This document shows, in pieces, positions 661 through 20,000 of a DNA stretch of 20,000 nucleotides (within the stretch, counting starts at the first letter, position 1; each line of letters begins with the position of its first letter). The notes under the pieces were generated by a model that saw only the letters and a program-made list of their open reading frames with translations, did no database searches and was not told the origin of the DNA. The translations under genes and the position numbers were made by a program. Source of the stretch: an uncultured virus (IMG/VR IMGVR_UViG_3300037483_000643) (taxonomy: Duplodnaviria; Heunggongvirae; Uroviricota; Caudoviricetes). The stretch is taken from the IMG/VR virus record IMGVR_UViG_3300037483_000643; one strand, given 5' to 3'.

Positions 661-918
661 TCACTCCTCGACACGTGCTTCGGCATCAACCTTGTACTCT
701 TGACCACATGCGCAACGCAAGATCTTCGAGTTTGGCAAGTATTCACACTTCTGCTCTGACAGCGCAATGCCACAACCCGTGCACTGATCGTCTTGCCACC
801 ATTCGGTAATCTTGCCAGTCTTGGCGTTGGCGACGAAGACACAAGCGCCCGCCAGCTCAAACTGCCCGATGATCTCTTTCGGCTTCTGTTGGGACGTCTT
901 CCGCCGACGTGCTACCAT
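661..918 (-). CDS. Zn-ribbon protein (CTGC...CAC)
   Basis: GAGGGG RBS; two Cys pairs; coupled to the next gene. Confidence 0.75.
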   Translation of the reverse strand: MVARRRKTSQQKPKEIIGQFELAGACVFVANAKTGKITEWWQDDQCTGCGIALSEQKCEYLPNSKILRCACGQEYKVDAEARVEE

Positions 919-937: not shown

Positions 938-996
938 GCAAAAAAACACCGCCGGTCTAGGCGAGGGAGGGAAGGACCTCGAACCTAGACCGGCGG
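938..996 (-). terminator. Rho-independent terminator
   Basis: Perfect 13-bp inverted repeat CCGCCGGTCTAGG (949-961 / 984-996) followed on the minus strand by TGTTTTTTT. Confidence 0.8.
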
Positions 997-1024
997 CCAG
1001 CACCCTGCATCGCGCACATCCCGT
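938..1024 (-). ncRNA. Candidate ~85-nt small RNA (or attenuated leader) with a C/U-rich loop
   Basis: Lies between promoter TTGACG-N17-TATACA and an intrinsic terminator. Folds as a 13-bp stem, then a CGAGG/CCUCG stem, then loop UCCUUCCCUC. Confidence 0.55.
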
Positions 1025-1030
1025 ACTCCA

Positions 1031-1059
1031 TGTATAGGACAGGTCGGGGCGCGCGTCAA
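1031..1059 (-). promoter_or_regulatory. sigma70-type promoter
   Basis: TTGACG(1059-1054)-N17-TATACA(1036-1031). Confidence 0.6.
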
Positions 1060-1142: not shown

Positions 1143-1358
1143 TCACCCCCCATCATCGGGTGACTGTTTCTTGGCGTTGTGTGGCGCCGAAGGGAACTTT
1201 GCGATTGCATCGCGTGCGATCAACCACGCTTCTTTCACAAGCCATGCACGGCTGCGGTCCTGTCGCCTTGCTTCTTGATTCAACTCTTTCAACATTGCAT
1301 CAGGAAAGTAAAAGCTCGTCTTGTGGCCCGTACCTGCATAACGCTTCGGTCGTGCCAT
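1143..1358 (-). CDS. Ribbon-helix-helix-like small protein, TIGR04563 (MXAN_4361/MXAN_4362) family-like
   Basis: KTSFYFPDAMLKELNQEARRQDRSRAWLVKEAWLIAR matches the remembered myxobacterial pattern KQSLYFPxxMLxEIxxEAxRQDRSLSWxVQxAWKIAR; GAGGTG RBS before ATG 1358. Confidence 0.75.
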   Translation of the reverse strand: MARPKRYAGTGHKTSFYFPDAMLKELNQEARRQDRSRAWLVKEAWLIARDAIAKFPSAPHNAKKQSPDDGG

Positions 1359-1584: not shown

Positions 1585-3219
1585 TTACGGCCTCGCTTCC
1601 TCTTCCTCTTCTTCGTCTTCTTCTTCCTCTTCTCCATCCGCCGCAGCTTCATCCTGTTGCACAGGAGGAGGAGGGGCTGCGTTGAATCCTTCCCTCTGCG
1701 CAGCTGCGCGGATCTTGTGTTGCTTCTGCAGCTCCATGATCAACGCGCGGATGTACGCCGCGTTGTCACCCGACGCCTGTATCCATGCAAGGAGATGAGG
1801 CTGGAAGGCGACGATCGGATCACCACCCGACTTCGCCAGCTCGGCAGCGATCGAAGGCTCCTTCACGTTGTCGAGGAAGTAGGCGGCGACGTCGGCGGGG
1901 GGCGCCTTCTCCTTGATCGCCTGAACGATTGCCAAGAACACCGTAGGCGGCTGCGCAGGGGCGCCGTCCAGTCGAGACGTCTGCTGTGTCTGATGAGGCG
2001 CCGCCTGCGGCGGCGCCCCAGCGGTCACCTGTTGCGGCTGCACGGCAGGCTGCGGCTGCACCGTCACCGTCTGTGCGGCAGCGGGCGCATTCTGCGCCTT
2101 GGCCGCTTCCATGGCCAAAAAGGCGTTGAGTACCTTCATCCACGCGGGGTCTTCGGCTTGCGGCGGTGACTCCAGCTCCTTGATCGAGTGCAGCGCACCC
2201 ACCGTCATGCTGACTACGCTGCCCATCGCTTCTGCCATCTGTGTAACGACCTTCAGGGTACCTGCCGATCCTTCGGCGCCTTGAATCAACAGCTTCTCGA
2301 CTACCGGATCGATCGCCGGTTTCGAGTTGGAGGCCTTCATCACCTCCATCATCAACGCCTGGAAGCGCTCGCCGGAAGCGCGCATCTCGGTTGCCATGCG
2401 ATCAGACGATGCCTGACTCGACTTCATCATCTCCACAATCAGTCCAGCGATGCCGGCAGTAGGATCGGCCTGGGGCTTTGCGCTAGCGCTTGCTGCAGTT
2501 GTGATTCTCGCTTCGAGCTGTTCCAACGCCAAGCGTGATTCACGGCGCGAGTTTTCCAGCTCGGCCTTGTGGCGTTCTTCGGCGATCTGCCGTTCGCGCT
2601 CGCGCAGCCGTTCTCTGTCTTCCGTGAGCTGTCGCTGTGCAGTCGTCAACTCGTTACGCACGCGCGCCAGCTCAGCGGCAACAGGATCAAATCCGGACCT
2701 CCCCACACCGCTGGCGGTTTGCGAGGCGCCGTGCATGGAGAAGTCCGGGGAGGGCACCATGCCCCCCAATCTGAGTGGTTGGGTGTCTTCGAGTCCGACC
2801 GTGTTGGTCTGCATGTTGGATGGGCGAGGCGGGTATTCCAGCGTCTTCGGCCCCTGCCAGTCGCGCGCAGCCACGATCTTGTAGATCTCACCTGCCGGCA
2901 ACGACAATTTCTGGCCGCTGACGTTCACGATCACGGGGGCGCCGATGGCGCGCGCACGATCGTTGCGGTGGTACACCATCATCTGATAGATACCGCCACC
3001 GCCAAGGCGCGTGAGCCAACCTTCAGGGTGCGCGATGTGATCGGCAGTGGCGTCGGTGAAGCACACAATCACGTCGCCTTGCGTCTGTCCAGGCGCGCGG
3101 TGAACGATTCGCACCGTGAACTCGTCACACTGCGTTTCCGCAACTCTGCCGAGCGCGTTGGCCACCGTCTGATCAGACGGTGACAGGTTGTCAGCGATCT
3201 GCGTCGCGATGTTGGCCAT
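1585..3219 (-). CDS. Large hypothetical protein: globular N-domain, coiled coil, Pro/Gln/Ala linker, helical C-domain, acidic tail
   Basis: Long ORF; AAGGGG RBS before ATG 3219; heptad-like E/R-rich segment; EEEEEDEEEEEE tail. Confidence 0.85.
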   Translation of the reverse strand: MANIATQIADNLSPSDQTVANALGRVAETQCDEFTVRIVHRAPGQTQGDVIVCFTDATADHIAHPEGWLTRLGGGGIYQMMVYHRNDRARAIGAPVIVNVSGQKLSLPAGEIYKIVAARDWQGPKTLEYPPRPSNMQTNTVGLEDTQPLRLGGMVPSPDFSMHGASQTASGVGRSGFDPVAAELARVRNELTTAQRQLTEDRERLRERERQIAEERHKAELENSRRESRLALEQLEARITTAASASAKPQADPTAGIAGLIVEMMKSSQASSDRMATEMRASGERFQALMMEVMKASNSKPAIDPVVEKLLIQGAEGSAGTLKVVTQMAEAMGSVVSMTVGALHSIKELESPPQAEDPAWMKVLNAFLAMEAAKAQNAPAAAQTVTVQPQPAVQPQQVTAGAPPQAAPHQTQQTSRLDGAPAQPPTVFLAIVQAIKEKAPPADVAAYFLDNVKEPSIAAELAKSGGDPIVAFQPHLLAWIQASGDNAAYIRALIMELQKQHKIRAAAQREGFNAAPPPPVQQDEAAADGEEEEEDEEEEEEARP

Positions 3220-3886: not shown

Positions 3887-4195
3887 CTACGCGTCACCAC
3901 TCGACGTCGCCTGGCCGCGCTCCAACACGTTCATCACAGCATTGGTAAGGATGCTTATGGCGCGCGCTTCGTGCCTGTAGGAACAGTCACCCATGTTGGG
4001 GTTGGCGCCAGGCTCAAACATCCACAAATGGCACGCCGGCCCGACGCAGGATGCATAGTCGATCTTGCGTGCACCTTCGTCTTTGATGCCAGGCGGAAGA
4101 TCGATTGTTGGCGGCGGACGCGGCGTCATCGTGAAGGGGCAGATCCCACGGGGCGTAGGCACTTCGGGCGTCGTCATGTCGATGATCTCTGTCAC
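3887..4195 (-). CDS. Hypothetical protein with CPF...CxGxxCxxW...GxC motif
   Basis: AGGAG RBS before GTG 4195; four spaced Cys typical of phage metal-binding hypotheticals. Confidence 0.75.
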   Translation of the reverse strand: MTEIIDMTTPEVPTPRGICPFTMTPRPPPTIDLPPGIKDEGARKIDYASCVGPACHLWMFEPGANPNMGDCSYRHEARAISILTNAVMNVLERGQATSSGDA

Positions 4196-9169: not shown

Positions 9170-9470
9170 GCAGTGCATTAAACCCGATTGGGTTTTTCTT
9201 GGTGGAGAGCGCCGGTACGCGGTTCACTGCAAAAAATAGGACGGGGAGTTTCAAACTAAACCAACCGTCCTATTTTTCTATTTACGAATGGTGCGCGAGC
9301 GTGGTCGTGTTCGGAGCGTGTTTGAAACACGAACACGCCCCCAGCGTGTTCAGCGTGTCTCTCCCCTATGGGGAGACACGCTGACGAACACGCTGACCAC
9401 GGGAAGGGGGGGAGGTAGAGGCGTGTCCAGGCGCGGTTCAGCTGGAGAGGGGGGGAAGAATAAATCGTCC
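9170..9470. other. Putative replication origin
   Basis: AT-rich tract (~9170-9290) next to nine CGTGT/ACACG boxes in both orientations and an imperfect palindrome centred on TCCCC-TAT-GGGGA (~9342-9395); immediately downstream of the helicase. Confidence 0.55.
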
Positions 9471-9481
9471 CGACCTTGGGC

Positions 9482-10585
9482 TCACTCCAGCTCGGCGGCT
9501 TCACTATCCTGCAAAACGTAACAGGGCTGTTGTCTACTGCCTGCCTTGATCACGCGTCCTTCATCTTCCAACACAGCAAGTGCGTCTTCGAGACGCATCC
9601 TGTTGCAGCCTACAGTTTTCGCAAACGCATTCACACCGCCAACAAACGTGCCGTTGCACTTCTCCAACAGCGCAATGATCTTCTTTTCCAGCTTGGAGGT
9701 TGGGCGTTCGTCTACAGCCTCATCAACGCTCATTGTATCGCAAACTTCGACAGCAAGACCGCCCTTAGGATCGTTGCCGATCTTCACGTCAGAGATCGAC
9801 AAGCTGCAAATAACACCGGCTGGTGTACCTTCAATGCGCTCTTTTGGCCGCGCTACCACGATTTGACCATCACGCGGCTCAAGCGTAAACATCGTGTTGC
9901 ACGCGTCTACAAACGCTGTAGATCCACGCGAGCGGTTGCGCAGGTCATTACCACGCTCACGTGATGGTTTACCCATGTGGTGTACAACGATACATACAGT
10001 TCCAAACTGTTCAGACAAGTGCAATAGCCTATCAAGCGGCTTTCGTGCCTCGCTAGAGTTTTCGTCTGTGTTGGGGCAAGCGCCCCGAAACGCGTCAATG
10101 ATGAGAAGATCGACACCTTCACACCATCGCGCAAAATCGTCGGTGTTGCGGTTGTCGAGATACGTTGTTGGTAATGTCTCTAGATTCAGGTTATCACCGA
10201 GATCACCTGCCAAAATGCCACGTGCGCGCGCCATTCGACGATAACGCGTGTATGTGAGATGTTTTCCTTGTTCGTAATCGAGGTGCAGCACGCGCCCACG
10301 TCGAACAGGAAAACGGCCCCATAACGCTTGGCCTGATGCAACAGCCAACGCGAGATCTTGTAGAATAAGCGTCTTGCCTGAAAACGACTCACCTACAAAC
10401 AAAACAGGTGCGCCGCGTCCGATCTTCAGATCGGGGCACAAATAGTCAACTGGATCAAGTGGTGATTCGAGAATTTCAGCCGCGCCGACGATGCGCGGCG
10501 AGAGTGCCCCTTCGACTTCCTCTACGGAGGGGACGACAGTCAGTTGCGGACGGCTGGGGGGCGTGCTAGAGTCGTTGTCATCCAT
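9482..10585 (-). CDS. RepA/AAA_25-type (RecA-fold) replicative helicase with probable C-terminal winged helix
   Basis: Walker A GESFSGKT, LDYEQ, Walker B LLIIDAF, VVHHMGK and RSRGSTAF; C-terminal wHTH-like KIIALL...LEDEGRV. Confidence 0.9.
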   Translation of the reverse strand: MDDNDSSTPPSRPQLTVVPSVEEVEGALSPRIVGAAEILESPLDPVDYLCPDLKIGRGAPVLFVGESFSGKTLILQDLALAVASGQALWGRFPVRRGRVLHLDYEQGKHLTYTRYRRMARARGILAGDLGDNLNLETLPTTYLDNRNTDDFARWCEGVDLLIIDAFRGACPNTDENSSEARKPLDRLLHLSEQFGTVCIVVHHMGKPSRERGNDLRNRSRGSTAFVDACNTMFTLEPRDGQIVVARPKERIEGTPAGVICSLSISDVKIGNDPKGGLAVEVCDTMSVDEAVDERPTSKLEKKIIALLEKCNGTFVGGVNAFAKTVGCNRMRLEDALAVLEDEGRVIKAGSRQQPCYVLQDSEAAELE

Positions 10586-10673: not shown

Positions 10674-11048
10674 CTAGTGAAGCTTGCTCGGGTCACGGCC
10701 AAAGATCTCATCTGCGCCGTAGATCCCTTGCTCAGCGTCTTCCTGCTTCTTGATCTCCTCTGGTGATGGTGGGGGACGCTCGGCACGTGCAGCGCGTTGT
10801 GCTTCATACAGCGCCTCTTGCGCCATCTGCCGACGTGCTTCGTGCTCTAGTGACAGCAGACGTGGATCCGCGCCTTCTCCATCCCAAGGAATCCACGCAG
10901 CGCGCGCAAACTCGTCTGCTGGGATCAGGCGCCCGACGCACGGTTCAAGATCAAGCCTGCAGTCGTTGCACTTCTCGCCGTCGCGTCGCAAGCTTTCGCC
11001 CCACACGGTGAGGCATACGGGACAGCGAAATCCGGGGTGCTGTTTCAC
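10674..11048 (-). CDS. Zn-finger protein (CPVC...CNDC...C), first leftward gene
   Basis: AGGGGG RBS before GTG; Cys motifs. Confidence 0.75.
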   Translation of the reverse strand: MKQHPGFRCPVCLTVWGESLRRDGEKCNDCRLDLEPCVGRLIPADEFARAAWIPWDGEGADPRLLSLEHEARRQMAQEALYEAQRAARAERPPPSPEEIKKQEDAEQGIYGADEIFGRDPSKLH

Positions 11049-11068
11049 CTGGAGTTACCCCCTAGGTT

Positions 11069-11115
11069 CTTCCCTCGGGCCCTTCCCTCGGGCGCGTAGA
11101 CTGCCCACTATACCA
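11069..11115 (-). promoter_or_regulatory. Extended -10 leftward promoter plus leader with GCCCGAGGGAAG direct repeat
   Basis: TGgTATAGT (11115-11107); 12-bp repeat at 11093-11082 and 11080-11069. Confidence 0.6.
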
Positions 11116-12740: not shown

Positions 12741-13076
12741 ATGGCCGCTCACGTTCACGAGAAGACGGAAGCGCAGCGCAAGAGGCACCGTAACAAGCCT
12801 AGCCGCAAGGCGCGGCTGGATCGTCGCCGGAAGGAGCGCGAAGACATCTTCGACGCTGCCATGACGGCGCGCGACACCGCCATAACGTTGGAGATCGATG
12901 CCAAGTCGAAGATCACGGCGAACGCGCCGCCCGATGACGTCAGCGCGGCAGTGGTGAAGGCGCGCGATGCCGAACACGCGGCGGTGGCTGCCGAGTCGAA
13001 GGCGGCCGAGCTGCGCAAGCGCCTCGACAGCTACCAGATCAACCCTGGATGTGTGGCGACGTGGAGTCTGCTGTAG
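12741..13076 (+). CDS. Basic coiled-coil hypothetical protein
   Basis: Purine-rich RBS (AAGGAAAGG); helical composition. Confidence 0.75.
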   Translation: MAAHVHEKTEAQRKRHRNKPSRKARLDRRRKEREDIFDAAMTARDTAITLEIDAKSKITANAPPDDVSAAVVKARDAEHAAVAAESKAAELRKRLDSYQINPGCVATWSLL

Positions 13077-13102
13077 ACGATTCGACTGCGGCCCAGTAGA
13101 CT
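13074..13102 (+). promoter_or_regulatory. Promoter for the SNF2 helicase operon
   Basis: TAGACG-N17-TAGACT followed by TCACAGC. Confidence 0.5.
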
Positions 13103-13142
13103 TCACAGCCTTTGCGCACGCCGTAGGGGAGGGAAGCCCCGA

Positions 13143-14903
13143 GTGGCCCAACCGCTTTACCGCTTCGCGCTCGCGCGCGATCTGACTCCGTTGGAGCTTG
13201 AACAGCTCCAACGAGAGGTGCCAGGCGTCGGGGTTGCTCGGGGCTCCCTCTCCACCTTGACCGCACAGCTGAACTGTGCGTGGCTACTCGAAGATCACCT
13301 CCAGTCTAGAGCCTTCCAGTTCAAAGTCCACCCCCCACGTACCGTCGATCGTATCAAGTGGTCACAGATAGTAGAGGCTGTCCGACCTGAGATGCGCCCC
13401 ACGGTGATGGACTTCGACAAGCCCTTCCCCGACTATCTGGCGCATTTCCAGGCTGTAGGAATCACGTTAGCTTTAAACGCTCCTGCCGAGTCGGAGGCGT
13501 TTCACTGGCCGTGTGGGAGTGGAAAATCGGTTGCGGCCATCAACTGGGGTCTCTTCCGGTCCGGTACGATCGTCTTCGGCACCAAGGCCGGCGCGCGGCA
13601 CACGATCTACCAGGAGTTCAAGAAGTACACGACTGTCACACCCGTCGTCCTGGTACCAAAGTCGGAGCGGCGGAAGAAGGATCCCGATCCGGCAGCTGAG
13701 ATCGAGCGCATCCGCGTTGAGACTGGCGAGTACCCGCGTGTGATCATCGTTGCGTGGGAGAGCCTCCCCGAGTGGATGGATCTGCTCCTCACGATTCCGA
13801 TCACCAGTCTTGTGCTGGACGAGATCCACATGCTGTCGTCACACCAGCGATGGATCCGGCTGCCCAGCAACCCCGATGCGAAAGCATCGTACGAACGCCG
13901 TAACAACAGAGCCGCAGCTGTGCAACGACTTTGCGCAAATGCCAAGCGTCGTCTTGGCATGACGGCCACGCCAGTCAAGGATCGTGTACGCGATCTGTGG
14001 GCACAGCTCGATCTCGTACATCCAAAAGCGTGGGGGCGGTTCTGGGACTTCTGCGAGCGGTACTGCAACGTCACCACTACTGCACAGGGCTACAAGGACA
14101 ATCGCGGATCTTCCAACCTCGTAGAGCTGGACAAGCGCCTGGCGTTCGTCCGCCATCACGTCGACTACAGCGTGACGCACCGCGATCTGCCGCCGAAGCG
14201 CCGCCAGGTCTTGTACATCGGAAAGGCGCAGCAAGCACGCATCGCTACTGCGGCGTTCGCTAAGGAGCTAGAGCGCGCCAAGAAGATCTCGACAAAAGCA
14301 GTGGTGGAGGTGGGCCTAGCTGCGGCTGCAGCGCGCAAGCTGCCTGTACTCTTAGATCATGTGCGGGACAGCGTGGCGAACGGTGGCAAGGTCGTGGTCT
14401 TGACCGGACGCCACAACGACTGCGATCGATGGATCGCCGCCATCCGCAAGGAGCTGCCCAACGTCTCGGCATGGATGGCGCATGGCTCCCACGGCACATC
14501 TTTCCGAGATCAGGTGCGCATCGAATTCATGGCCCACCCCGGCCCGTGTGTCTTGGTCGGGGGTGGCGAGGCGTGGGGGGAATCGGTCTCGTTGAACACC
14601 GCCGATCTGGCCATCAATGCGCAGCTGCCGATCACGCCCAAGCAACTCTGGCAGCGTGAAGGTCGGTTCATGCGCAAGGACTCGAAGAAAGGCGTGCTCA
14701 TCCTCTACCCGGTAGCAGAAGGTACCGTTGACGAGCGGCTGTCACAGATCTTGCTGTCAAAGCTGCCAGCCGTCGCTGATCTGCAGCACGATAGCGAGTT
14801 CGCACGTGCCGAGGCCGATCTGGCGTCGGGGGGCATGGACGAAGACACGATCATCAACTCGTTGCTGCAGAAGATCATCAGCGGCGGTGATTCGGAAGAC
14901 TGA
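13143..14903 (+). CDS. SNF2-family (SF2) helicase/ATPase
   Basis: Walker A WPCGSGKS, LVLDEIH, motif III TATP, DLWAQL, LPPK linker and motif VI QREGRFMR, plus TVDE. Confidence 0.92.
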   Translation: MAQPLYRFALARDLTPLELEQLQREVPGVGVARGSLSTLTAQLNCAWLLEDHLQSRAFQFKVHPPRTVDRIKWSQIVEAVRPEMRPTVMDFDKPFPDYLAHFQAVGITLALNAPAESEAFHWPCGSGKSVAAINWGLFRSGTIVFGTKAGARHTIYQEFKKYTTVTPVVLVPKSERRKKDPDPAAEIERIRVETGEYPRVIIVAWESLPEWMDLLLTIPITSLVLDEIHMLSSHQRWIRLPSNPDAKASYERRNNRAAAVQRLCANAKRRLGMTATPVKDRVRDLWAQLDLVHPKAWGRFWDFCERYCNVTTTAQGYKDNRGSSNLVELDKRLAFVRHHVDYSVTHRDLPPKRRQVLYIGKAQQARIATAAFAKELERAKKISTKAVVEVGLAAAAARKLPVLLDHVRDSVANGGKVVVLTGRHNDCDRWIAAIRKELPNVSAWMAHGSHGTSFRDQVRIEFMAHPGPCVLVGGGEAWGESVSLNTADLAINAQLPITPKQLWQREGRFMRKDSKKGVLILYPVAEGTVDERLSQILLSKLPAVADLQHDSEFARAEADLASGGMDEDTIINSLLQKIISGGDSED

Positions 14904-16762: not shown

Positions 16763-16932
16763 TGAAAGACAGAAGAATGACGAAAAATAAGGAGTGGCGC
16801 GCTACGTGGTCATGTACACTCTGCGGAAAGACGCTTCGAGTTTCTGATCGCACGTGTAAGAAGTGCGGTCGTCTGTTGAAGGAATTTGGACGTCTGTTGG
16901 TAGAAATGCACAAGACGAAAGTTGGCGCATAA
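16759..16932 (+). CDS. Zn-ribbon small protein (WxCxxC...CxxC)
   Basis: ATGA overlap; RanBP2-like Cys spacing. Confidence 0.65.
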   Translation: MMKDRRMTKNKEWRATWSCTLCGKTLRVSDRTCKKCGRLLKEFGRLLVEMHKTKVGA

Positions 16933-16934
16933 AC

Positions 16935-18617
16935 ATGCCAAGTGTAGCGGCACAGCAGGTTAGCGCGTCCAACGCCGATCAGGCGCGTTGGGCCAAGATC
17001 TGCAAGCGGTATCCCGCACTGTCACGTGACGAAGAACGGTCTTTGATCGTGCGCGCACAAGCCGGCGACAGCGCAGCACGACAGAAGCTACTGAATCACA
17101 ATCTGTCGTGGTGCGTCATGTGTGCCCGCAAGCTGGCGACGGGCGGGGCGCCGTTCGATGACGTTGTGCAAGAGGGCGTAGAGGGGCTGATCCGCGCGCT
17201 CGAAACGTTCGATGTCAAGCGTGAGCTGCGCTTCTCCACTTATGCAATGTGGTGGATACGTGTTCGCCAGATAACCTTTTTGCGGTCAGCGCGATCGGTC
17301 GTACGGCCAAGACGTGAAACCAATGCAGTGGCGGACTTTTCACTAGACACACCGATTGGTGATGACGATAACGACGCTACTCGGCTTGATCTGTTGGAAG
17401 ATGACGCCGCCAGTCCAGAAGAACAGTTCGTCAGCAGCGACCACGATCGGCACGTGCGCCAAGCACTTGGGCGGCTGCGAAAGCGAATCGGCAACATCGG
17501 CTGGGACATCATTCACAGTAGACTTGTGAAGAGTGCTGGAGAAGAAGATACACTAGAGATCGTCGGCAACCGGCACGGTGTCTCACGCGAACGCATCCGG
17601 CAAGTCGAGATGAAGACGATCGCACTACTGCGTCGGGTGCTGCCGGAGATGTTGACAGCGCGCGAAGGTGCATATCAGGCGCGGTTGGAGAGGGAGATTT
17701 CAATGGTGACACTAACACCCGTCGAGCGCGCTCGTCGCAAGTTAATTCTTTCCAACAGTCCTACTGCGCAGAGAATCGCTGCAGAAGCCGAGGCCGCTTC
17801 CAAGGTCGCTGAGACTGAAGAAGAAGTAGAGGGGGAGACGGCTGGACTGCTGACGTATCCCGCTGGGCCGCGTGATCCGCTCGTCGCTGAGCCATGCCCG
17901 CCAGAGTTGATCGTCGCGCATGTTCATCGAGTGTTTCCTAACTTACCTGGCGCAATAGAAGAGGCAGCGGTAGATGTGGCGCAAGGTTTAGGGCTGAAAG
18001 ACAGCGCAGCGAAGCGTGGTGTTGCACTAAGCACAGCGCATTCACGTAGAAAGCGCATGTTTGAAGCTACAGGCGCGCACTACTGTGATGAAGTGACATC
18101 AGCACTGCTCGCCGCCGCTCTTCAACAGCTGGCTAGCAGTACGTCGCCTACTGTCGAACGGTGCGAGAATGGTGGGACTCGTGACAAACTCGTACCTGAT
18201 CCGCGATTTCGTTTGTCGCCTGAAGTCGCAGCGCTTGTAGCATCCGTAGTGAAGATGGCGGATGCCGAAGATGGCGAGGTGCCTGGGGTGATGCACGTAC
18301 CGGCACCGAACGACGGCTTCGACTTCGCCGATTTGATGCCTACAGGTGTCCAGCCGTCGAAGATCATCACCGTGCCAGATCTGATCGATCAGAAGATCAT
18401 CGCGCGAGCTGCCCACCTCCTACCTACACCAGATGATGACATCACGGCGCGTCTGCAGGCGCTTCGAGATGTTGTCCATACGCGTCTTGACACTGCCAGG
18501 AGAACACTAGAAGACACGCAAGGTGCTGCAGCCGAAGCGCAGGCGCGTGTCGACAAGCTCACGCGGCAGCTAGAGCAGATCGACGCGGCGATCGGCCCAA
18601 CTCAGGTGGCGCCGTGA
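16935..18617 (+). CDS. sigma-70 family factor (regions 1.2, 2 and 4; region 3 largely absent) fused to a LuxR-like HTH and coiled coil
   Basis: LSRDEE...AGDSAARQKLLNHNL; DVVQEG...RFSTYAMWWIR; TLEIVG...GVSRERIRQVE. The C-half contains VAQGLGLKDSAAKRGVALSTAHSRRKRMFEATG. Confidence 0.88.
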   Translation: MPSVAAQQVSASNADQARWAKICKRYPALSRDEERSLIVRAQAGDSAARQKLLNHNLSWCVMCARKLATGGAPFDDVVQEGVEGLIRALETFDVKRELRFSTYAMWWIRVRQITFLRSARSVVRPRRETNAVADFSLDTPIGDDDNDATRLDLLEDDAASPEEQFVSSDHDRHVRQALGRLRKRIGNIGWDIIHSRLVKSAGEEDTLEIVGNRHGVSRERIRQVEMKTIALLRRVLPEMLTAREGAYQARLEREISMVTLTPVERARRKLILSNSPTAQRIAAEAEAASKVAETEEEVEGETAGLLTYPAGPRDPLVAEPCPPELIVAHVHRVFPNLPGAIEEAAVDVAQGLGLKDSAAKRGVALSTAHSRRKRMFEATGAHYCDEVTSALLAAALQQLASSTSPTVERCENGGTRDKLVPDPRFRLSPEVAALVASVVKMADAEDGEVPGVMHVPAPNDGFDFADLMPTGVQPSKIITVPDLIDQKIIARAAHLLPTPDDDITARLQALRDVVHTRLDTARRTLEDTQGAAAEAQARVDKLTRQLEQIDAAIGPTQVAP

Positions 18618-19920: not shown

Positions 19921-19990
19921 TTGACGATCTACATCCAGTCGAGTACAACATTCACAGCGGCTTCGCACACCGCTTTCGTCCCGAGGGAAG
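19921..19990 (+). promoter_or_regulatory. Promoter and RBS for a gene starting at GTG 19998
   Basis: TTGACG-N17-TACAAC (19921-19949), then TTCACAGC, then CCCGAGGGAAG (19980-19990) 7 nt before GTG. Confidence 0.55.
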
Positions 19991-20000
19991 ACATCCAGTG

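Follow-up and report, generated by a model that had tools for sequence, protein, structure and literature searches.

The locus at 938 to 1059 of the window, by which we mean the whole 20,000-nt stretch of viral DNA analyzed here, raises the question of whether a short promoter-to-terminator unit on the minus strand encodes an RNA that acts elsewhere in the genome. The window is part of a ~69-kb virus-like contig found in sediment metagenomes and encodes an AAA_25 helicase, an SNF2 helicase, a PD-(D/E)XK nuclease, and a sigma-70-like factor. A preliminary description had proposed that the locus specifies a discrete RNA and that the loop of this RNA pairs in trans with the leaders of replication genes; our comparative sequence tests support this core claim. 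Units with the same position, promoter, hairpin, and tail, on unrelated stems, were found in the window and in two relatives, G001 and G009. We consider it probable that the unit specifies a chaperone-independent, trans-acting antisense RNA that would block translation of replication and recombination genes. The features on which this reading draws are collected in Table 1.

Table 1. Features of the predicted RNA unit, its putative targets, and neighboring genes (positions in the window)
Feature	Position	Strand	Remark
-35 box TTGACG	1054..1059	-	sigma-70-like; TTGACG/TTGACT-N17-TA at equivalent place in G001 and G009
-10 box TATACA	1031..1036	-	counterparts TAAGGT (G001) and TAAGTA (G009)
predicted small RNA, ~86 nt	939..1024	-	~83 nt in G001, ~62 nt in G009; sequence-based prediction
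terminator hairpin (13-bp stem, inner helix, loop)	949..996	-	by folding
U7 tract	940..946	-	
seed CUUCCCUC in terminator loop	967..974	-	identical in G001; CCUCCCAC in G009
5' motif UGUGCGCG	1011..1018	-	present in G001, absent in G009
20-codon ORF, stop within 3' arm	957..1019	-	not kept in G001 or G009
lineage-specific 85-aa ORF just past terminator	661..918	-	absent from X3 relative, G001, and G009
ribbon-helix-helix (RHH) gene, TIGR04563 family	1143..1358	-	69.2 versus cutoff of 65 bits; upstream of unit
fifth GAGGGAAG copy, inside 553-codon marker gene	1689..1696	-	not kept in G001
target 1: two GAGGGAAG copies and GAACCUAG	11062..11089	-	leader of operon 10674-11048 / AAA_25 helicase 9482-10585
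extended -10-like element TG-N-TATAGT of target 1	11107..11115	-	sequence only
promoter-like TAGACG-N17-TAGACT of SNF2 helicase gene	13074..13102	+	
target 2: GAGGGAAG overlapping Shine-Dalgarno of SNF2 helicase (13143-14903)	13129..13136	+	kept in G001
promoter-like TTGACG-N17-TACAAC of gene starting at 19998	19921..19949	+	matching G001 gene: TTGACG-N17-TAGGTT
5-bp leader hairpin, loop CUUCGCACA	19956..19974	+	G001: loop CUCGCAC, stem with two double changes
target 3: GAGGGAAG ahead of GTG 19998	19983..19990	+	very probably Sak4-like gene

All parts of the unit (TTGACG-N17-TATACA, 13-bp stem, U7) are present at the positions previously given. The promoter boxes (1059-1054 and 1036-1031) are separated by 17 nt, and the RNA start near 1024 is placed from promoter spacing only. 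A strict promoter scan of the window did not list this promoter, and window-wide counts exceeded expectation neither for promoters (5 versus 6.1) nor for terminators (17 versus 16.7). Since the strict scan omits the promoter and shows no excess, the promoter call rests on conservation in the relatives. In the hairpin stem, 996-984 pairs with 961-949 at 13 of 13 positions, all Watson-Crick, and only 1 of 200 shuffles folded as well as the unit (z, -3.19). The 10-nt loop reported earlier, UCCUUCCCUC at 976-967, is that of the centroid structure; the minimum-energy fold of the RNA adopts a second register in which the seed is half-buried. The probability that all 8 nt of the seed are unpaired is 0.56 for the window RNA, and 0.83 and 1.00 for the other two RNAs. 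The preliminary description had pointed to the C4 and Pxr models of Rfam, and the unit matches no family in Rfam 15: searches at the window unit (E ≤ 5), at the G001 locus L203 (E ≤ 1), and at the G009 unit (E ≤ 5) gave no match.

The 5' motif UGUGCGCG is possibly a second pairing site or a protein site. As a second pairing site, 5' GUGCG with leader CGCAC, it was not supported: cognate pairs gave p values of 0.08 to 0.82 versus shuffles, and the targets ranked 1, 3, and 18 of 43 starts in the window, where the pairing had been noticed, but 21 and 68 of 113 in G001. Immediately upstream of the -35 box is a strong 12-bp hairpin (1062-1099), and the motifs TGGGGGGTGA and CAGTCACCC are repeated at 1141-1165, at the end of the RHH gene; hairpin and repeats may possibly be an operon terminator or an RHH operator.

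We then searched the window for the purine octamer complementary to the seed. GAGGGAAG occurs six times, its own complement in the unit included, versus 0.46 expected, and none of 200 shuffles reached six. The four leader copies named earlier (11089-11082 and 11076-11069 on the minus strand, 13129-13136 and 19983-19990 on the plus strand) were recovered, as were the 12-bp, 11-bp, and GAACCUAG pairings exactly as quoted; the earlier list had overlooked a fifth sense copy at 1696-1689, which is the sole perfect 10-of-10 match to the loop UCCUUCCCUC. These exact complements lie 0.7 kb (within coding sequence) and 10 to 19 kb from the unit. In the 11062-11089 leader, a further 8-bp helix could lengthen the pairing to 20 bp (P = 0.0135 for a helix chosen post hoc). 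Outside the window, the same contig encodes a Sak4-like single-stranded DNA (ssDNA)-annealing protein of 326 aa that starts with GTG and is 53% identical to that of G001, and the leader at 19921-20000 aligns with the G001 Sak4 leader. Because of this protein and the leader alignment, the gene at 19998 is very probably the orthologue of the G001 Sak4-like gene. A CGCAC loop is common to both Sak4 leaders, on a stem that differs by two double changes.

G001 is a complete virus of 75,450 bp that shares 34 to 38% identity with the window in the marker protein and 52 to 55% in SNF2; by blastn, intergenic DNA had no alignable sequence. No homologue of the RHH gene or of ORF 661-918 was found in G001. 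Its unit follows the marker and FmdB-type genes, ahead of the promoter of the late structural operon, and comprises TTGACG-N17-TAAGGT, then UGUGCGCG as 5' motif, and a terminator of 11 bp whose sequence is different (z, -3.38) and whose loop UAACUUCCCUC includes the 8-nt seed CUUCCCUC. The octamer GAGGGAAG has five copies in this genome: the unit's complement, two coding copies, the SNF2 start, and the Sak4-like start. The two starts, of 114, that carry it are thus orthologues of two window targets. In their start regions, both target pairs share 9 nt between the window and G001, whereas all 10 other orthologous pairs share 4 or 5, and at least 9 nt are shared by 0.8% of the 4,859 window-by-G001 start pairs. 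Loop conservation, a test named in the preliminary description, is seen in G001 on a wholly different stem, with the site retained at orthologous targets and not at other start regions. The primase modules differ (AAA_25 in the window, DUF3987 in G001), and the G001 primase start offers the loop only 6 Watson-Crick pairs and one G-U pair. The G001 SNF2 leader (L010:6573-6612) has a CUUCCUC of its own that could fold over the GAGGGAAG site in cis.

The third virus, G009 (G009:C9; 75,342 bp; marker ~26% identical), alters loop and target jointly, which is the covariation that had been suggested as a check. Its unit follows the stop of the marker gene, ahead of the late promoter-like element, and has TTGACT-N17-TAAGTA and a 13-bp hairpin (z, -3.36) whose loop is CCUCCCAC and whose U-rich tail is weak; homology to the other units is judged from position and shape, the sequence not being alignable. 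The exact complement of CCUCCCAC, GTGGGAGG, is found at 1 of 107 called G009 starts, that of an 855-aa primase-helicase. The start codon of this gene is fixed by an in-frame stop just upstream, with a PHROG match from residue 8; the gene has its own TTGACG promoter-like site, and its GTGGGAGG site sits in a small hairpin resembling that of the window. Loop and target both differ from those of the window at the same two positions, making two compensating changes in one virus and at one gene. By chance, such a match is offered by 4 of 255 GGAGG-containing octamers at the G009 primase start; when any of four Shine-Dalgarno cores is allowed and five replication genes are considered, the figure is 10 of 863 octamers. 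The excess of the octamer, proposed earlier as a further check, holds in the window and not genome-wide in the relatives (5 versus 4.4 in G001; 9 versus 5.7 in G009), where most copies fall in coding sequence. Across the three viruses, the sequences establish a conserved architecture, a loop kept on altered stems, sites kept at orthologues, and joint change of loop and target.

A purine octamer conserved in this way might instead be a protein-binding motif, recognized by a CsrA-like protein in GGA loops or by a phage binder of RNA or ssDNA hairpins, with the unit as an opposite-strand decoy or priming hairpin. Small hairpins with a GGA-containing loop are possible at the targets (GCCC-GAGGGAA-GGGC and GCCC-GUGGGA-GGGU), the Sak4 leaders have a second loop motif in common, and CsrA scored above its cutoff in 14 of the 61 genomes searched from the suspected host phylum. 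The GGGG-AGGGAAG-CCCC hairpin put forward earlier forms in a short SNF2 fragment and is absent from the minimum-energy fold of the entire predicted leader. In all three viruses, however, it is the C/U-rich strand that bears promoter and U tract, the opposite strand of the unit yielded no promoter-like site, and the transcribed strand presents a C/U loop rather than the several GGA loops of a CsrA decoy. The window and G001 have different primase modules yet an identical octamer, and a host protein would not demand two matched changes in one virus. On this evidence, a protein motif is an improbable explanation.

To rank the sites, gene starts were taken from a custom script, and the window list combined 29 called with 14 hand-added starts, two of which (11528 and 14896) are not on start codons; in G001, the SNF2 start was set by hand from a protein alignment, and the FmdB start was added by hand. 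The ranking covered the 43 starts of the 20,000-nt stretch for the window and was genome-wide in the relatives only. By longest perfect complement, the named targets ranked first in the window (9, 8, and 8, next 6), in G001 (8 and 8, next 7, among 113 starts), and in G009 (8, next 7, among 107). Non-matching pairs of loop and genome reached 8 at 6 of 664 starts, none of them primase, SNF2, or Sak4; among control hairpin loops, 7 of 16, mostly longer loops, had at least 8 complementary bases at some start. The G009 loop gave -17.1 kcal/mol on its own target versus -6.9 to -13.4 on others, and swapped loop-target pairs were 2 to 10 kcal/mol weaker at the exactly matching replication-gene sites.

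The energy ranking of leaders suggested in the preliminary description came out differently: accessibility-corrected energies do not set the targets apart, with ranks of 1, 3, and 9 of 43 in the window and 9 and 11 of 113 in G001, and with values within ~2 kcal/mol of common GAGGGAG/GAGGGGA sites. In these energies the loop acts as a broad anti-Shine-Dalgarno sequence, and the targets lead solely by length of perfect complement. This lack of separation from common ribosome sites would suit a general anti-Shine-Dalgarno RNA directed mainly against host mRNAs or many phage genes, the three sites being merely the best of many, and C-rich loops can bind many mRNAs chaperone-free, as 6C RNA does (PMC6486639). 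Such an RNA gives no reason for orthologous phage starts to keep the full octamer or to vary it with the loop, and we consider it very unlikely to account for the unit.

Four of the six relatives examined (G002, G003, G010, and G109) had no such unit at the equivalent place; these are incomplete records, and G109, which has another gene order, was read in part. Elsewhere in its genome (L030:2978-3110), G003 has a distinct promoter-to-terminator unit, ~125 nt long and with C-rich segments, and no match was found between it and the G003 replication starts. The 553-codon marker gene, located upstream of the unit, is the hallmark of a large family that comprises 351 clusters at 50% identity. Searches of viral contigs with SNF2, RHH, and marker queries gave no further relative, one search returning G001 only; GenBank phages yielded chance or distant helicase matches only, and an exact stem pattern had 0 matches. 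A marker-motif pattern found 3 true family members among 14 viral loci and at least 2 among the 120 genome loci listed. A promoter-seed-T-run pattern found 51 viral loci, mostly chance; two from unrelated GC-rich viruses (L187:3001-3112 and L192:3001-3119) have a promoter and a terminator loop with CUUCCCUC, which may be chance as well.

The placement of the unit invites another explanation, that the promoter-terminator pair governs read-through to downstream genes, in the manner of lambda PR'-tR' or of a leader-peptide attenuator, and that the short RNA is a by-product. The unit directly precedes the late operon in G001 and G009, genes 661-918 and 338-664 have no promoter of their own in the scan, and pairing in cis between the loop and the ribosome site of the following gene would be possible in the window, in a close relative (run X3, ~88% identical), and in G001; StxS is a precedent for such by-products (PMC7547250). 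In an attenuator variant for the window lineage, ribosomes on the 20-codon ORF, which exists as described earlier (1019-957, minus strand), would halt within the 3' arm, opening the terminator to transcription of 661-918 and onward. The ORF has an upstream GGAG, and its stop falls in the 3' arm; this GGAG (1029-1026) lies upstream of the predicted RNA start.

Read-through nevertheless does not account for why the loop matches distant start regions and varies along with them. A promoter-like element of its own precedes the late operon, and this is so in relatives lacking the unit as well; a leader ORF with a ribosome site was found in the window only and in neither G001 nor G009; and there is no competing antiterminator, no alternative fold being found within the 24 kcal/mol that opening the 3' arm costs. 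In the X3 relative, 652 is joined to 939 by 33 other letters, and the sequence is kept from the terminator tail (939) onward, the unit's own letters falling outside the comparison. The idea of a dedicated attenuator for 661-918, raised in the preliminary description, is disfavored because X3, G001, and G009 are without that ORF: X3 keeps 939 on all the same, and G001 and G009 have no leader peptide with a ribosome-binding site. Overall, we judge read-through control unlikely as the explanation, although a read-through role and an antisense role can coexist. In the window lineage, we speculate, the 20-codon ORF may let upstream transcripts through the terminator.

The identity of the host bears on how an antisense RNA would act. 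TIGR04563, the family of the RHH gene, is one that we take to be typical of myxobacteria. A myxobacterial host is only suspected, because a capsid-candidate profile around a Myxococcaceae genome found nothing in those genomes (0 of 401, 0 of 20, and 0 of 301). A search of 61 genomes from the suspected host phylum found Hfq in none, and so pairing would be chaperone-free if the host is a myxobacterium. A contig from run X2 matches the window at 4030-4064 and has the same ~28-nt palindromic repeat on both flanks, as in a CRISPR spacer; the repeat resembles type I-E CRISPR repeats, and the match could identify the host.

Several observations concern the virus group and other parts of the window. 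A 233-aa protein of G001 (L010:18878-19579), 46 to 54% identical among four relatives, has as its nearest named clusters the PM2 P2 and PRD1 P3 capsid proteins (0.77 to 0.78), and its weak fold matches include many jelly-roll capsids; the structure model of this capsid candidate had a pLDDT of 47 and no Foldseek match at E ≤ 0.001. None of 108 G001 proteins matched HK97, portal, or terminase families in Pfam. That G001-type viruses form a large tailless group is a lead suggested by these sequences. In the window, an AT-rich intergenic stretch (9233-9273) holds a perfect 12-bp inverted repeat with T runs on either side, a candidate bidirectional terminator or origin. At 98-127, TTGACG-N18-TAGCAT resembles the promoter-like element before the late structural operon of G001, G003, and G009. 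The ORF at 16863-18617 has sigma-70 regions in its first 260 codons and GAGGGAG-ATG at 17690-17705; it could represent a pair of genes or else a sigma factor that has an internal start.

For the trans-acting antisense RNA that we favor, the proposed mechanism is as follows. In a temperate virus, host sigma-70 polymerase would transcribe an RNA of 60 to 90 nt ending at the intrinsic terminator. Because its promoter is of the same type as the targets' promoters, the RNA would be made early and in the prophage. The terminator loop would expose the 8-nt C/U-rich seed, which would nucleate on the purine octamer overlapping or adjoining the ribosome-binding site, probably without Hfq. Hiding this site would lower translation of the primase-helicase operon, the SNF2 helicase, and the Sak4-like annealing protein, the predicted targets being promoter-proximal genes of replication and recombination. 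We infer the steps of transcription, pairing in vivo, and repression.

The purpose of such control can be guessed at: most likely, replication genes would be kept silent in a prophage as well as in a superinfecting relative, or damped as the RNA accumulates. Prophage silencing or superinfection immunity is the leading purpose because both G001 and G009 encode an integrase; a lytic rheostat fits equally. Among 108 of the 114 called G001 proteins, none matched a CI/Cro-type (HTH_3) family in Pfam. A bolder proposal, which we hold tentatively and think doubtful as yet, is an RNA-only immunity or incompatibility code in undescribed large temperate, possibly tailless viruses: a terminator-loop RNA of the prophage would silence translation of primase, helicase, and recombinase, replacing or working beside a CI-type repressor, and matched loop and octamer changes would define immunity groups.

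If immunity is the purpose, loop and octamer would make up a compact, predictable code for phage exclusion, and would do so in a host group that yielded no Hfq. The natural covariation of loop and target amounts to a ready-made set of compensatory mutants, and matching the terminator loop against a genome's own ribosome-binding sites offers a simple screen for a layer of control that uncultured viruses may commonly have. A literature search, with most subscription journals outside its scope, brought up no evident description of the RNA or of the virus group. A supplementary table to PMC12197685 lists 38 uncharacterized phage small RNAs and could bear on novelty. Phage antisense RNAs in the literature surveyed mostly have one antirepressor or regulator target or are encoded opposite their target, whereas the window RNA appears to address several replication-gene start sites from afar through its terminator loop.

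Among known systems, the c4 RNA of P1 and P7 blocks translation by loop pairing around a ribosome-binding site and underlies P1/P7 heteroimmunity (PMC12197685), and it targets the antirepressor mRNA within the c4-icd-ant operon (PMC8198154). The window RNA likewise has a loop predicted to be complementary to ribosome-binding-site regions. Unlike c4, it would be a separate gene 10 to 19 kb from three replication-gene leaders and would pair through its terminator loop, and no Rfam C4-clan match was found at the window, G001, or G009 unit. The surroundings also differ from c4-icd-ant, with RHH, FmdB-type, and unknown genes as neighbors and helicase, primase, and Sak4-like starts as putative targets. 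The covariation of loop and target would be compatible with heteroimmunity of the c4 type. In the lysogen, P4 CI RNA holds the replication genes of its own phage shut off (PMC4825925); the RNA proposed here would serve a like purpose, with replication genes as predicted targets and integrases encoded in G001 and G009. P4 CI RNA is processed from the transcript that it controls and acts by termination through flanking seqA and seqC, whereas the window sites are distant ribosome-binding-site leaders.

In Gram-positive bacteria with a high GC content, the C-rich loops of 6C RNA bind several mRNAs, including that of the helicase gene dnaB, without Hfq or ProQ (PMC6486639). The window RNA would similarly expose a C-rich loop complementary to ribosome-binding sites; 6C is chromosomal, has another shape, and gave no Rfam match here, and the window RNA has a single seed loop, set in its terminator. 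StxS, the short RNA of a promoter-terminator pair of the lambda PR'-tR' type, lies ahead of late genes, is made in lysogens, and has gained regulatory targets (PMC7547250). The window system differs from the Hfq-dependent, processed StxS in having a second promoter-like element before the late operon, and no Q-like antiterminator was identified for the unit studied. In plasmid countertranscripts such as CopA and RNAI, loop pairing limits a replication function, and loop changes are matched by target changes. CopA and RNAI are fully complementary to their target and encoded opposite it, whereas the window RNA is predicted to pair over 8 to 12 nt (at most 20, in one leader), in trans, and with several targets.
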